From positions 1 through 33,533 of IMG/VR virus record IMGVR_UViG_3300025838_000091: DNA of 33,533 nucleotides. The stretch is one strand, 5' to 3'. This DNA comes from a virus (Duplodnaviria; Caudoviricetes). Of this stretch, positions 1,781 through 10,332 are shown piece by piece; the first letter of the stretch is position 1, and each line of letters opens with the position of its first letter. The notes beneath the pieces were generated by a model, which was not told where the DNA came from, did no database searches, and was given only the letters and a program-made list of their open reading frames with translations. A program made the position numbers and the translations under genes.

Positions 1781-2944
1781 GTGATCCTCGACGTTAGGCT
1801 AAAAGAGTTTGGAACTTCTCAGCAAGGCGAACGTCTTGACGCGGTAAATAAATATGGGACATTTCTGGCGGCAGCGAAAGCGCTTGGCGTGTCCAGGACT
1901 GCAATCAGTCAATCGATTGACATCCTGAGGCGAAATGCGGCGCTTCGCGGATATTCGCCTTTGCACGATATGACCAAAACCGTGCCCGATGGTTTCAAGG
2001 TCAAAGGTGTAAGCACCTATTACGACAAGGACGGAAAAACCAGAGGTCAGTGGGTCAAGTCAAGCGCAGACGAAGAGCGGCGGCAGCAAATTATCAAAGA
2101 CACGTTTGTTGCTATGGCAAGTGAGTTGCCTCGCATTGCTCCAAGCGTTGCGCCGAAGGTAAGTATTGATGCGCTATGCAATTTATACACGCTCACCGAT
2201 ACCCATGTCGGAATGCTGGCGTGGCACGAAGAGGGTGGCGCGGATTGGGATTTAAAGATTGCCGAAAAGACGCTGACCGGATGCTTTGAGCAAATGGTTG
2301 TTTCGTCCCCACCTGCAAAAGTTGGATTTGTTTCGCAGCTGGGTGACTGGTTGCATTTTGATGGCATGAAAGCGGTCACACCTACGCACCAGCACATTCT
2401 TGACGCAGACGGTCGTTTTAGCAAGATCGTACAGGTCTCTGTTCGAATGCTCAGGCGACTAGTCGATTTTGCGCTGAGCCATCACGAGAGGGTCGTTGTG
2501 TTGATGGCTGAGGGCAATCATGACCTTGTGTCCAGTATTTGGCTGCGGACAATGTTTAAGGCGCTCTATGAAAACGAGCCAAGAGTGGAAGTGATTGATT
2601 CTGCTTTGCCTTACTACGTCTATGAGCATGGAAAAACAATGCTTTGTTTTCACCACGGGCACTTAAAAAATAAAGATAGTTTGCCGCTACTTTTTGCCGC
2701 GCAGTTTCCCGCAACGTGGGGTGCAACGACTAAACGATATTGCCACACTGGTCACCTGCATCACTTGGACGAGAAAGAACACTCGGGAATGATCGTGACT
2801 CAACATCCCACGTTGTCGGCTAGAGACGCGCACGCGGCTAGGGGAGGTTGGATAGCCGAGCGTCAAGTCAGCGCAATCACATATCACAAGGATTTTGGTC
2901 AAGTGGCAAAGATAACGATCACTCCTGAAATGCTATTGAAATGA
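1781..2944 (+). CDS. N-terminal HTH fused to calcineurin-like metallophosphoesterase
   Basis: HTH-like 'FLAAAKALGVSRTAISQSI'. Metallophosphoesterase motifs DTH, LGDWLH, GNHD, HHGH and GHLH. Confidence 0.8.
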   Translation: MILDVRLKEFGTSQQGERLDAVNKYGTFLAAAKALGVSRTAISQSIDILRRNAALRGYSPLHDMTKTVPDGFKVKGVSTYYDKDGKTRGQWVKSSADEERRQQIIKDTFVAMASELPRIAPSVAPKVSIDALCNLYTLTDTHVGMLAWHEEGGADWDLKIAEKTLTGCFEQMVVSSPPAKVGFVSQLGDWLHFDGMKAVTPTHQHILDADGRFSKIVQVSVRMLRRLVDFALSHHERVVVLMAEGNHDLVSSIWLRTMFKALYENEPRVEVIDSALPYYVYEHGKTMLCFHHGHLKNKDSLPLLFAAQFPATWGATTKRYCHTGHLHHLDEKEHSGMIVTQHPTLSARDAHAARGGWIAERQVSAITYHKDFGQVAKITITPEMLLK

Positions 2945-4707: not shown

Positions 4708-5085
4708 ATGAAAAAGCTAATTTTATTGGCAGTTTTAACGCTGTCTGCGTGCACGACCGCACAACAACAAACCGCAACATCCAGCGCGGCTCAGGCTCAA
4801 AAACTGCTGGCTGCGGCCTGTCCACAAATCAATGCGGCGATTGCTCAATTGTCTGCGCTTCAATTGCCAGATCAAGTCCAGGCTGATCTTAATGCGGCCA
4901 ATCCTATTGTTCAGTCCGCATGCTCTGTGAGCGGTCAAGTGGATGCGACCAGCGTTAAAGCGCTTGGCATTACCGCGATCCCAGTCATCATTTCGGCAAT
5001 CCAAGCTTCAAGTATGAGCGACACGGCAAAACAAGACATTACGTTGGGTCTGGATGCTGTTTCAGTTGGGCTGGCTTTGCTATGA
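4708..5085 (+). CDS. Lipoprotein, Ala/Gln-rich helical, hydrophobic C-terminus
   Basis: True start is the ATG at 4708 (GAGGG RBS): MKKLILLAVLTLSA|C lipobox. Confidence 0.75.
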   Translation: MKKLILLAVLTLSACTTAQQQTATSSAAQAQKLLAAACPQINAAIAQLSALQLPDQVQADLNAANPIVQSACSVSGQVDATSVKALGITAIPVIISAIQASSMSDTAKQDITLGLDAVSVGLALL

Positions 5086-5870
5086 AACAGGTGCGCCTAG
5101 CCTTGTCGGGGTCGGGATTTCTCGCCCCAATTCATGCAGGCGCGGTCTGCTCTCTTATGGATAACGGCGTTGAGATTGTCGAGCTATCCGGATCGAGCGG
5201 CGGATCCATCATTGCCGCATTGGTTGCGATCGGCATGGATGCCAAAGCAATCAAAGACTTGGCTATGTCTGATATTCCTAAAGGGATTATCAGTTTTCAG
5301 CCGCTAGCATTGCTCAAGAAAGCGTACAACTCGGGCGAGATTTTGCATAAATGGCTTCAAGACGTAATCGGCGGTCATACGTTTGCCAGTGCAAAAGTGC
5401 CCGTTACGGTAATGGCGACCGACATCGAGGCCGGAAAGCCGTATGTCTTTAACCAAAGCCTGACCCCAGACGTGCAAATTGCTGACGCTTGCCGAGCCTC
5501 TGCGAGCGTGCCGTTTGTCTGGCAGCCAGCAATCGTGAATGGCCGCGCACTGATCGATGGCGGGACCTGCAATAACATCCCTGTCGATCAATTGATTGAC
5601 GACAGCACGCCTCGAGTCGGCATTCAAGTAAAAGATGGTTCCGGATCTGGCAAAATCGACACAGTATTTCAATTCGCTGGGCAGGTTTTAAGCACCATGC
5701 TCGATGCGAATGAGGGAAACATTGACGTCTGGGCTCAGCGCACTGGCGCAAAAATTGTCGAAGTCAGTGCGGATCCCTACGGTTTCTTAAATCCAAACCT
5801 GACCACGGATGAGAAAACCGATCTGTTTAGTCGCGGTTATTTTTCGGTGACGACGAAACTTTTAGCTTAA
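5082..5870 (+). CDS. Patatin-like phospholipase
   Basis: LALSGSG glycine-rich loop, GSSGG nucleophile elbow, ASASVP and DGG catalytic motif. Confidence 0.9.
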   Translation: MKQVRLALSGSGFLAPIHAGAVCSLMDNGVEIVELSGSSGGSIIAALVAIGMDAKAIKDLAMSDIPKGIISFQPLALLKKAYNSGEILHKWLQDVIGGHTFASAKVPVTVMATDIEAGKPYVFNQSLTPDVQIADACRASASVPFVWQPAIVNGRALIDGGTCNNIPVDQLIDDSTPRVGIQVKDGSGSGKIDTVFQFAGQVLSTMLDANEGNIDVWAQRTGAKIVEVSADPYGFLNPNLTTDEKTDLFSRGYFSVTTKLLA

Positions 5871-6060
5871 ACAGCTCCCACAATCCCGGGTGCATTCGAC
5901 GATCTCCGGCTTCCCATTGCTGCCACGCGCGACACGTCGAATAAACGACGTGCGCAGCGGACGTTTGAGTCAGCCCGACCTGCTCGCGTTTGGTGCGAAT
6001 CTCATCTGGTGTTGGATTTGAATGCGGCCCTTTCGAACCACGGTTAGGATGATTAGCCAT
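5827..6060 (-). CDS. aca10: XRE HTH regulator, Aca10-like anti-CRISPR-associated repressor
   Basis: GLTQTSAA...WQQWEAGDRRMHPGLWELF is nearly identical to the Aca10 C-terminal half as I recall it. Last gene of a small operon with a palindromic operator. Confidence 0.75.
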   Translation of the reverse strand: MANHPNRGSKGPHSNPTPDEIRTKREQVGLTQTSAAHVVYSTCRAWQQWEAGDRRMHPGLWELFKLKVSSSPKNNRD

Positions 6061-6526
6061 TTGTAAAGCAATCTCGCAAAATTTTCACTGACTCAGGTTT
6101 TTTGTCGATGGCTTCAATTGCTCGCACCTCAAAAACAATATCTTCGTTTGGGGCAGTGTTGTTTGCTGTTTGTTCAATCCGCTGAATCCAAATATCGTGA
6201 TTTTGATTTGCAAAGTCACGCACCACCGACTCTAGCCACTGCATCATTTGGTCTTTGCCGATTTCGGTAAGTGTTAGCCATTTTGAATCTGCACTTTCGT
6301 CTGTAATTTTGCACTCGCGTAACACAATCTGTGCAGTGAATTCGTTGTTGATCGGCGCGCCATCACAATCCACAACCGATTTTGTTGTGCCGTCATCGAC
6401 GATGCCAAACATTTCGTTATTAAAAGTTTTGTTTGAGCCGTAATCTGTGCCGCTGAGCGTGAACCAGTACGTTGTTGCTCCATCCATCGAATTGTGGTCT
6501 TTACTACTAAAATTTGCTGTAATCAT
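6053..6526 (-). CDS. Candidate anti-CRISPR: AcrIF18-like N-terminal domain plus unknown C-terminal domain
   Basis: SKDHN.DGATTYWF...EMFGIV...VVDCDGAP resembles AcrIF18 as recalled (SKDQN.DGTTTYWF..ETFGVV...VVDCDGAP). Acidic (26 D/E vs 14 K/R); directly upstream of the aca10-like gene. Confidence 0.65.
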   Translation of the reverse strand: MITANFSSKDHNSMDGATTYWFTLSGTDYGSNKTFNNEMFGIVDDGTTKSVVDCDGAPINNEFTAQIVLRECKITDESADSKWLTLTEIGKDQMMQWLESVVRDFANQNHDIWIQRIEQTANNTAPNEDIVFEVRAIEAIDKKPESVKILRDCFTNG

Positions 6527-6543
6527 TTTATTTTCCTATCCGT

Positions 6544-6563
6544 TGTTCTCGATGTGCGGTTGT
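6544..6563 (-). repeat. 20-bp leader motif, copy 2 (ACAACCGCACATCGAGAACA)
   Basis: 17/20 identical to 6880-6899; ends 17 nt before the ATG at 6526. Confidence 0.8.
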
Positions 6564-6564
6564 T

Positions 6565-6861
6565 TTAGATATTAGATAAAACAACATTGTTGATTTCTGC
6601 AATTTCATTTTTCATTAAATATAGCGGAGCACAAATATCTGATAATTCACAGCCCGCCATCAATGCGACCTCGTTTCGAATCGCGCGCTGCTCTCTGCTG
6701 CTCAATTCCGTATCAATCAGAGCGTCAGCGATCGCCTCGTATGCAACTGCGTTTACCATTGATTCTGGATTCTCGACTGCTGCCCATTTGAATCCGCCAG
6801 CACCGATTGATTTGCGAACGATTGCTACTGATTCGTTAAAAATTTTAGTTGCGTTTGTCAT
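6565..6861 (-). CDS. Small acidic hypothetical protein, candidate anti-defence/anti-CRISPR
   Basis: 98 aa, 13 D/E vs 8 K/R, AAGGA RBS; first gene of the aca operon. Confidence 0.55.
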   Translation of the reverse strand: MTNATKIFNESVAIVRKSIGAGGFKWAAVENPESMVNAVAYEAIADALIDTELSSREQRAIRNEVALMAGCELSDICAPLYLMKNEIAEINNVVLSNI

Positions 6862-6879
6862 TTTTCATTCCTTGGCCCC

Positions 6880-6899
6880 TGTTCCCGAGGCGCGGTTGT
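6880..6899 (-). repeat. 20-bp leader motif, copy 1 (ACAACCGCGCCTCGGGAACA)
   Basis: 17/20 identical to 6544-6563; ends 18 nt before the ATG at 6861. Confidence 0.8.
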
Positions 6900-6916: not shown

Positions 6917-6944
6917 ATTATACGCTCATTGTTCGTATTTGCAA
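6917..6944 (-). promoter_or_regulatory. Sigma70 promoter of the acr-aca operon with an inverted-repeat operator in the spacer
   Basis: -35 TTGCAA (6944-6939), 16-bp spacer, perfect -10 TATAAT (6922-6917). Palindrome ATACGCTCA-T-TGTTCGTAT at 6920-6938 (7/9 arm match). Confidence 0.8.
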
Positions 6945-6977: not shown

Positions 6978-7958
6978 TTAATGTCTGATTCTGGCCGCAA
7001 TCTGAGAAGCGCTCGGGTTGTAATACGTCATCGCTTGGGCTGGATTGGACCAGCCGAACATTTTGCACATGTCTAGCACATCCATACGCGGCGCAAGCCA
7101 AGTCGCAGCCGTGTGTCGGCTATCGTGAAACGTAAAACCCTCTAGCCCGGCTCGCGCTCGAGCACGTCTAAAGAGTGCGTCCAGCGTTTCTTTTTTGAGC
7201 GCAAAAACGGATGTCGAATCAAACCCCCGCATTTTCGCAATGAGCCTTGCAGCCTTCTTGGTGATCGGCACGTCCCTTGGTTTTGTCTTGGTAATCGGCA
7301 AAATCACATAGTCTGGCCGGACGCAAGCCCAATTCAATCCTGTCAATTCCCCCGCCCGCATCCCCGTTCTAAGCGCCAGCAAAAAACATACAGCCACGCT
7401 CTGAGTAATAGAGCGAACCGGTCCACCGTACTGCAGAGCCCTAAGCATTTTTCGGATCTGGCTCGACGTGATAACCGTCGTTCGATGCTCTGGTGACTTC
7501 GGCTTGCGCACGTCGCGCATCGGGTTTTCTGCAATCCAGCGCCATTCTCGTCTGGCTACCTCAAAGACGCCACCTAATAATGAACACTCGCGAATCACGG
7601 TGCCTGGACTCGTGGCCGCCAGCCGAGCGTCACGCCACTTGCCCAGCTCGTCTGGTGTAAAGTTACCGAGCAATCGACTGGCACTTAGATTTTCGTCGCG
7701 GATAAACGCTTTGATCCTGACTTGTTCCCATTTGTTACCGCGCTTAGTCGGGGAAATTTCTAGGGCATAGCGTTCGAGCGCGGCCTTGAGCGTGTACTTG
7801 GTGCCAATCGGTTTCTTGTTCTCGGTGCGTAATTCTGTTTCTCGCGCAGCTCCCCACGATTCGGCCTCTCGTTTGGTGCGGAACACCTGAGAATCGCGCA
7901 CTCCTTTGACGTAGACCTGTGCTCGGTAGCCTGTCTTGGTCTTGGTAACGGATGACAT
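6978..7958 (-). CDS. int: Tyrosine recombinase/integrase
   Basis: TGMRAGEL (catalytic R), TKT (K), FHDSRH (HxxR), FGW and MTYY (Y); adjacent to attP. Confidence 0.92.
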   Translation of the reverse strand: MSSVTKTKTGYRAQVYVKGVRDSQVFRTKREAESWGAARETELRTENKKPIGTKYTLKAALERYALEISPTKRGNKWEQVRIKAFIRDENLSASRLLGNFTPDELGKWRDARLAATSPGTVIRECSLLGGVFEVARREWRWIAENPMRDVRKPKSPEHRTTVITSSQIRKMLRALQYGGPVRSITQSVAVCFLLALRTGMRAGELTGLNWACVRPDYVILPITKTKPRDVPITKKAARLIAKMRGFDSTSVFALKKETLDALFRRARARAGLEGFTFHDSRHTAATWLAPRMDVLDMCKMFGWSNPAQAMTYYNPSASQIAARIRH

Positions 7959-9341: not shown

Positions 9342-9706
9342 GCTGTCATCCCCTTACCAATCTCAGCGGCGCACCTAACGATTGCTCGGCGGGTTGCACT
9401 GTATGGGTCGTTACTTACACGTTCAACCTTATACTTTTGTCGGTAATTGTCTTTGACGTCAAAGTATCCGGCATATATGGCTACGCCGTCGTCCTCCCCC
9501 GTGTAAAAGTCAATACTTAACTTCACCGCCAGCCGCAACGCATCGCCGTCATCGGTTAGTGGATTCCATAATTCAGTCCAACAGTGGTCGTTTGGCGGTG
9601 AACCGACAGATTCATAATAAAACCAATTGCCGCTCTCAAAACGACCTTGATCGAACGGTTGCCCTGCCGCCTTAGCCGCATACTCTAATAGTTCTTGGTC
9701 AGTCAT
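9338..9706 (-). CDS. Conserved phage hypothetical protein
   Basis: MTDQELLEYAAKAAG...WNPLTDDGDALRLAVKL...ATRRAIVRCAAEIG is a widespread phage family; ATGA coupling. Confidence 0.7.
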   Translation of the reverse strand: MTDQELLEYAAKAAGQPFDQGRFESGNWFYYESVGSPPNDHCWTELWNPLTDDGDALRLAVKLSIDFYTGEDDGVAIYAGYFDVKDNYRQKYKVERVSNDPYSATRRAIVRCAAEIGKGMTA

Positions 9707-10332
9707 TTCGTTACCCCAAAATTAAAAGCAATTAGCTGACAAAACAGGCGATATTGTTCCAGATATTCTTGGTTGTTTTTATGGGCTTCCTCAATAGCGT
9801 CTGAAAATTCTTTGACTGTCCCTGAAAAACATCCACAATTAACCCTAACGCCGATTTTTTTATCAATATGTGCAGTTGTAAATCGGCCAGATGATTTAGA
9901 AGGTCCAATTTGTAATATATCTGCGGATTTCAACACCTGAGCATCACCGGACACCCACGCATCACCGGACACCCACGCATTGCCGGACACCCAAGCATTG
10001 CCGGACACCCGAGCATCACCGGACACCCGAGCATTGCCGGACACCCGAGCATTATCGAACACCCGAGCATCACCGGACACCCAAGCATCACCGGACACCC
10101 ACGCATTGCCGGACACCCAAGCATTGCCGGACACCCGAGCATTATCGAACACCCGAGCATTATCGAACACCCACGCATTGCCGGACGTTGACAGGTTTTT
10201 TTCTGTTTCAATATACCCGCCTAAATCACCAGCAGCCACCGAAGAAATTGCAACTAAAGCACGTATTCGATAAAGTGTTTTATCTCCCAATTGTTTTGCA
10301 TCGTTTGCAAGCAATTCATATTTTTCGTTCAT
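9703..10332 (-). CDS. Hexapeptide-repeat (left-handed beta-helix-like) phage protein
   Basis: LYRIRAL..GDLGGYIE N-terminus, 14 x [SF][GD][ND]A[WRQ]V repeats, CGCF C-terminus. Confidence 0.8.
   Translation of the reverse strand: MNEKYELLANDAKQLGDKTLYRIRALVAISSVAAGDLGGYIETEKNLSTSGNAWVFDNARVFDNARVSGNAWVSGNAWVSGDAWVSGDARVFDNARVSGNARVSGDARVSGNAWVSGNAWVSGDAWVSGDAQVLKSADILQIGPSKSSGRFTTAHIDKKIGVRVNCGCFSGTVKEFSDAIEEAHKNNQEYLEQYRLFCQLIAFNFGVTK
9934..10185 (-). repeat. 14 x 18-bp coding tandem repeat
   Basis: Units such as GCATCACCGGACACCCAC / GCATTGCCGGACACCCGA on the plus strand. Confidence 0.9.

Follow-up and report, generated by a model that had tools for sequence, protein, structure and literature searches.

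An AcrIF18-family domain fused to an unnamed acidic domain in a phage acr-aca10 operon: a candidate two-headed anti-defence protein

We interpret the 157-aa product of an ORF that runs without internal stop from position 6526 to 6053 (minus strand) of a phage genome as a two-headed anti-defence protein, a reading to which we give a probability of roughly 0.5. Its N-terminal head would block the Cascade of type I CRISPR systems, while its C-terminal head would be a second inhibitor, likeliest one directed against a CRISPR-Cas effector. The window, i.e. the whole stretch of 33,533 nucleotides that was analysed, is one 33.5-kb virus record carrying a phage tyrosine integrase, and the head, tail, lysis and regulatory genes that can be recognised by eye in its ORF lists are presumably those of a temperate tailed phage.

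Natural fusions of Acrs have been described before, and the two-head architecture is in itself no surprise. Like AcrIE4-F7 of Pseudomonas citronellolis, as presented in PMC8887544, the window protein is a head-to-tail fusion of small domains that each also exist as stand-alone proteins. It differs from AcrIE4-F7 in its partner families and in its uncharacterised second half, whereas both halves of AcrIE4-F7 are proven inhibitors with known targets. The literature searched reports neither a fusion of AcrIF18 nor the C-terminal family (C family), although the supplement of PMC7913775 might list a tested member. As a candidate for a new family of inhibitors, the C family can be tested directly, with many natural stand-alone variants at hand.

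Two unrelated domains in one ORF

A phmmer search with the 157-aa protein against 1.84 billion cluster representatives gave 62 matches. Judged half by half, 54 of these cover residues ~1-80 alone (53 of the 54 being 69-109 aa long) and six cover residues ~79-156 alone, while a single match covers the whole protein and another is a spurious repeat protein. When profiles of the two halves were compared, hhalign gave a probability of 0.25%, indicating that they are unrelated and ruling out an internal duplication of one domain. The sequence-only reading, which had seen two unrelated domains in one ORF, is thereby confirmed, each half also occurring on its own.

The fusion cluster has six members (five full-length and one N-truncated record), and the exact fusion sequence is found on 44 contigs. 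A second fusion cluster, 163 aa long and 67% identical, has a linker that is six residues longer. A frameshift or assembly artefact is ruled out by three other records at 100% identity, by variant full-length members and by the second fusion with its different linker. Between the two fusions the C halves are 73% identical compared to 68% for the N halves, and the C halves are sisters in the tree (support 86/87). The N-half tree lacks resolution, and the stand-alone protein P0004 is closer to the window N half (76% identity) than the other fusion is (68%), so that the fusion may have formed once or repeatedly. The junction lies where proteins of the N-terminal family (N family) naturally end and where the closest stand-alone C proteins naturally begin. 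Two neighbouring cassette genes were therefore probably joined when the stop codon and the spacer separating them were lost. It is unlikely that the C domain is also made on its own from a start codon within the gene, as codons 40-93 contain no in-frame ATG; the internal GTG codons 52 and 68 have no obvious ribosome-binding site by eye.

The AlphaFold model of the full-length protein (pLDDT 93, pTM 0.57) shows a confidence dip at residues 71-80 and fits two domains with free orientation, the low pTM being partly due to an alignment made up mostly of half-length rows. Fold searches with the full-length model found no known fold (best E 0.33, best Z 4.7; AcrIF13 at Z 4.6, rmsd 3.3 with 54 aligned residues, lies within background), and the fused full-length proteins gave no match in NCBIfam.

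The N-terminal domain and AcrIF18

The N-terminal domain (residues 1-78; 6293 to 6526, minus strand) is small and acidic (78 aa, pI 4.21, 12 D/E against 5 K/R), and is predicted to form a four-stranded meander with a short strand and helices in addition. A scan of viral contigs with an N-family member as query yielded five loci in which a 69-aa protein is followed by a small HTH gene. One of these proteins, P0075 (L003 copy, IMG/VR), agrees by eye at every position with WP_060431798.1, a row of the AcrIF18 table of PMC7648647 that is labelled AcrIF18.2*. BLASTP aligned the N domain to P0075 with 27/59 identities (46%) and a pairwise E of 5e-13 over AcrIF18 residues 4-51, the window protein carrying 11 additional residues as an insertion. 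When 45 N-half homologs, AcrIF18 not among them, were made into a profile, P0075 was recovered over AcrIF18 residues 4-67 of 69 with 61.7 bits (for 1.8e9 sequences, E 4.5e-12), as against 12.7 bits for the top-scoring of 5000 shuffles; reciprocal phmmer between the N domain and AcrIF18 gave 40 bits (E 3.1e-5 at library scale). Judged from these alignments, the N domain is an AcrIF18 homolog. The AcrIF18-type motifs named in the sequence-only reading are present in residues 1-78, and the likeness that it drew from them has a significant alignment behind it. The insertion, which it had put at about 12 aa, is real; its length, however, is 11 residues, and it is not peculiar to the window protein. 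It is common to most N-family members, so that AcrIF18 itself is the short form.

The supplement of PMC7648647 gives seven AcrIF18 homologs, all about 68-72 aa and unfused. With the present searches the family widens from the seven in the original table to more than 50 clusters at 50% identity, most of them with the insertion that is absent from the assayed protein. P0045 (154 aa) carries the N-family domain at its end, behind an apparently mis-called start, while P0014 (2285 aa) was rejected as a homolog, the match being a spurious one to repeats. Sequence searches of the PDB gave no solved relative for the N domain, and the N half had no match in GenBank phage records.

The window domain resembles AcrIF18* from Serratia marcescens prophages (Pinilla-Redondo et al. 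2020, PMC7648647), to which it is homologous over the beta-meander core, also in being small and acidic (pI 4.2 compared to 4.05 for P0075) and in lying directly before an aca gene. In contrast to AcrIF18, the window protein has the insertion, a longer C-terminal helix region and a fused second domain, and its partner gene is Aca10-like instead of aca5-type. According to PMC7648647, the Serratia proteins inhibit the I-F and I-E systems upstream of DNA (target) binding, and DNA mimicry is suggested there as a hypothesis. In the available text of a preprint (bioRxiv 10.64898/2026.01.15.699771), AcrIF18 belongs to a DNA-mimic panel tried on PUA-Cal-HAD and does not figure among the proteins given as active. 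By analogy with AcrIF18, we consider it probable on balance that the N head inhibits type I Cascade at a step prior to DNA binding. The identity of 46% over 59 columns together with the 11-aa insertion counts against such activity; a homolog of AcrIC7 at 37% identity is described in PMC7913775 as having lost I-C activity.

The gene in its operon

The locus reads, in order, integrase, promoter, a 98-aa orphan ORF, the 157-aa fused ORF, a 77-aa HTH gene and a convergent patatin gene, and the operon region is slightly AT-richer than the window (G+C 44% against 48%). Its last gene (5827 to 6060, minus strand) encodes a 77-aa HTH protein that matches PDB entry 7XI5 by phmmer (E 5.5e-22), an entry identified as Aca10 in PMC9410881. 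The fused gene and that of this Aca10 homolog share 8 nt, in which the stop of the one overlaps the start of the other. Upstream, a sigma-70-type promoter (6917 to 6944, minus strand; TTGCAA-N16-TATAAT) agrees with the consensus at 10/12 positions and is the best of five promoter-like sites. Its spacer is filled by an imperfect palindrome resembling the Aca10 operator (6920 to 6938), which overlaps the -10 box and differs from the published 19-bp Aca10 site by two and three mismatches on the two strands. This is the only site in the window with three mismatches or fewer, and 100 shuffles gave no match. Based on the AcrIF18 homology, the overlapping Aca10 homolog and the near-copy of the Aca10 operator in the promoter, the 157-aa gene is placed in an acr-aca10 operon, for which repression by the Aca10 homolog is predicted. 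By analogy with Aca10, Aca1 and Aca2, the operon would be strongly transcribed upon phage entry or induction, whereupon a dimer of the Aca10-like protein would bind the operator and shut the operon off.

The arrangement is similar to the acrIC7-acrIC6-aca10 operon as reported in PMC7913775 and PMC9410881 (7XI5), in which two cargo genes are followed by an Aca10 homolog, and the promoter described in PMC9410881 has the same -35 hexamer, a 16-nt spacer and an operator palindrome that agrees with the window at 17/21 bases. Unlike in that operon, the cargo in the window consists of the 98-aa orphan and the AcrIF18 fusion, and the operator is imperfect in one half-site.

Each cargo gene is preceded by a leader/ribosome-binding segment, and the two segments form a 38-nt direct repeat of 71% identity. 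Copy 1 (6862 to 6899, minus strand) precedes the 98-aa ORF and folds into a small hairpin, whereas copy 2 (6526 to 6563, minus strand), immediately before the fused gene, hardly folds. The presence of a similar leader ahead of both cargo genes suggests that the cassettes were added each with its own leader. The first gene, the 98-aa orphan ORF (6565 to 6861, minus strand), gave no match of note in Pfam, PHROG, NCBIfam, the PDB or GenBank phages, and is a second anti-defence candidate.

The operon is flanked by the tyrosine integrase gene (6978 to 7958, minus strand; PF00589 E 7.8e-20, phrog_1 E 4.9e-51) and by the patatin-like phospholipase gene (5082 to 5870, plus strand), which follows the lysis cluster. 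Elsewhere in the window, a 387-aa ORF (1781 to 2944, plus strand) before the lysis cluster looks by eye like a metallophosphoesterase, and a 209-aa ORF (9703 to 10332, minus strand) contains tandem hexapeptide-like repeats.

The C-terminal domain: family and predicted fold

The linker and C-terminal domain (residues ~79-157; 6053 to 6292, minus strand) belong to an unnamed acidic family; this part of the protein has a pI of 4.7 and a predicted beta-alpha-alpha-beta-beta-beta fold. A profile search gathered 81 proteins of this family, 70 of which are at most 124 aa long, while two are the AcrIF18 fusions and nine are longer with other partners; the N-family domain occurs in none of the 72 newly found C-family proteins. 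Modelled alone with AlphaFold, the C half reached a pLDDT of 93, in line with a domain that folds independently. The proposal of the sequence-only reading that this half is an independent small domain thus finds backing both in the stand-alone homologs and in the separate model, as far as a predicted fold can tell.

The family had no match in Pfam (42 members), in PHROG (8 members) or, by sequence, in the PDB. It should be underlined that PHROG and NCBIfam lack many Acrs, AcrIF18 itself getting no match there, which limits the negative results for the C family; given this incomplete coverage, the C domain may belong to an unlisted Acr family. Fold searches with the C domain gave no solved match either (Foldseek best E 0.88, VIA best Z 4.3). 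The model is therefore a confident one for a fold for which we found no solved relative, although for neither domain does a missing fold match prove a new fold. In the ESM Atlas the C half had a look-alike, a phage SU10_adaptor, with recognition below the threshold, whereas P0148, a member of a distant branch of the family, had no match, and GenBank phage records gave one weak match to the C half (E 0.4).

Six BFVD proteins (A0A6G5XUJ1, A0A6G5Y0E1, A0A6G5Y1L7, A0A6G5Y054, A0A6G5XYN9 and A0A6G5XVJ8) have the C-domain fold at TM 0.67-0.82. They are unnamed viral proteins of 138-277 aa with 13-19% identity and similar accession prefixes, and may have arisen by expansion of paralogs within a single phage group. 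Neither family was found in 401 genomes of one bacterial order; as the C profile also missed the known carrier G003, this search was insensitive and says little.

Neighbourhoods of stand-alone C-family genes

Stand-alone C-family genes were examined at 29 loci (L009-L034 and L036-L038), leaving out L035, a false match, and L039, which duplicates L012. Many of these loci come from related phages and are not independent, and some of the neighbours were compared with libraries. The distant branch accounts for 15 of the 29; its member P0148 gave no direct BLASTP match to the window C half, but profile comparison ties the distant branch to that of the window (hhalign 96.4%, E 1.3e-9, 74 columns). 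An Aca10-like gene lies within ~0.5 kb downstream of the C-family gene in four loci, namely L012 (66.9 bits), L030 (60.2), L034 (41.1) and L010 (24.6). Stand-alone C homologs next to aca genes, a check named beforehand, thus do exist. Three of these four loci belong to the distant branch. L012 has no cargo other than the C gene, which overlaps the aca gene just as the fused gene does in the window; in L034 the C gene comes first behind an operator-like site with three mismatches, and L030 has the order C homolog, AcrIIC1-matching gene, aca10. The middle gene of L030 matches AcrIIC1 (E 2.9e-21) and the N terminus of AcrIF25 (E 1.2e-9). The C family is thus associated with anti-CRISPR genes in three independent ways: by fusion to an Acr, by its place before aca10 and by an AcrIIC1 neighbour.

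Several terminal genes were kept outside the aca count. L032, L033 and L037 represent one element, whose terminal HTH gene has a weak likeness to Aca1 (for L033 the only Aca match, E 0.58); L031 ends in a gene with a weak match of BrnA-antitoxin type, and L026 (Acidovorax phage Alfacinha1) has an annotated HTH gene at its end. In L010, the identification of the HTH gene as Aca9 was ruled out by eye against the Aca list. An 82-aa family has one member each in L010 (2743-2991) and L034 (2727-2975), placed after the C-family gene and before the aca-like gene. The two proteins share 43% identity (E 8e-19) and link the distant branch to the window's branch; this family, without a natural PDB match and present in two unrelated loci, is another Acr candidate. 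The AcrIIC1-matching gene of L030 (2733-3167, plus strand) encodes a 144-aa natural fusion of an AcrIF25-N-terminus-like segment and an AcrIIC1 homolog, and adjoins phage lysis genes.

Judging from its neighbours and fusion partners, the acidic C head would act as a second, separate inhibitor. We hold it likely that it is anti-defence of some kind, and put its being an anti-CRISPR at just short of even odds. The sequence-only interpretation of a possible two-headed anti-CRISPR is supported in part, namely in the AcrIF18 homology, the fusion, the separately predicted C fold and the aca neighbours of stand-alone C homologs; a second CRISPR system is a candidate target beside other defences. The target could alternatively be a non-CRISPR defence (restriction-modification, BREX or another nucleic-acid-binding system), with the inhibitor coupled to an anti-CRISPR, which we consider unlikely. 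In the close branch an Aca10-like neighbour is found in only one of 14 loci, and the other 13 are small co-oriented phage gene clusters without such a gene, as this alternative would have it. It also agrees with the anti-restriction-like ORF that follows the C-family gene in L020 (phrog_7245, E 2.6e-4; the same ORF is seen by eye in L024), with the annotated antirestriction protein three genes downstream in L027, and with the argument of PMC7648647 that anti-defence genes of several kinds collect at aca-linked loci. The characterised inhibitors found beside or fused to the C family are, however, all anti-CRISPRs (AcrIF18, AcrIIC1 and, weakly, AcrIE3).

Fusion partners and possible function of the C domain

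The nine C-family proteins longer than 125 aa carry several unrelated partners. In P0120 the C domain lies behind a segment of ~60-65 aa, whose sole PDB matches are to AcrIE3 (E 0.033) and whose sole PHROG match is to a type I-E Acr (E 0.025); the evidence that this segment is AcrIE3-like is weak but concordant. Across P0120, P0131 and P0113 the AcrIE3-like N segment shrinks (about 65, 33 and 22 residues) before a conserved C domain. In five further clusters (P0114, P0118, P0119, P0127 and P0130), an unnamed acidic domain of ~100 aa is fused before the C domain; that of P0114 had no match in PHROG, NCBIfam or the PDB.

Small cassette genes often fuse with unrelated partners, and the variety of partners is what would be expected if the C domain were a non-inhibitory early phage protein, serving host takeover or merely a passenger, that was taken up into acr cassettes, became fused by chance read-through and left the N domain as the sole anti-CRISPR. 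The 25 of 29 C-family loci without an Aca10-like neighbour and the finding of only two AcrIF18 fusion clusters point in the same direction. On the other hand, the two fusions agree as well in their C halves as in their N halves (73% and 68%), and a C gene is the only cargo before the Aca10-like gene in L012 and the first gene behind the operator-like site in L034, so we regard a non-inhibitory role as improbable. That both domains act on one target (by avidity, or at two sites on one Cascade) and form a stronger single-system inhibitor is more doubtful still: two diverged lineages with sister C halves have both retained the fusion, but their linkers differ by six residues, an N-family gene is found near none of the 29 C-family loci, and both halves occur mostly stand-alone.

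Within our preferred reading of a two-headed anti-defence protein, the C domain may tentatively be seen as a new, widespread anti-CRISPR family with a fold still absent from the PDB that serves as a plug-in module. If so, it would be used alone before Aca10-like repressors, in one operon with an AcrIIC1 fusion and, through separate fusion events, joined to AcrIF18-like and to AcrIE3-like domains, and the window protein would be a multi-system inhibitor combining a dual I-F/I-E head with a new head.

Two further loci with distant C-family genes deserve description. In the phage Alfacinha1 (L026, 2380-3458, gp19-gp22), three small genes, the third of them a distant C-family gene, and an HTH gene lie among tail genes, and by eye the cassette is preceded by a leader similar to those of the window (about 2340-2380). 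Alfacinha1 is a cultured phage and therefore offers a ready test system. In the Citrobacter plasmid NZ_LC589514.1 (L025, 4923-5691), a conjugative resistance plasmid, a distant C-family gene lies with an 80-aa and a 58-aa gene between transposon genes, and a near-identical C-family gene (92%) is found in a Sideroxydans MAG (L028).
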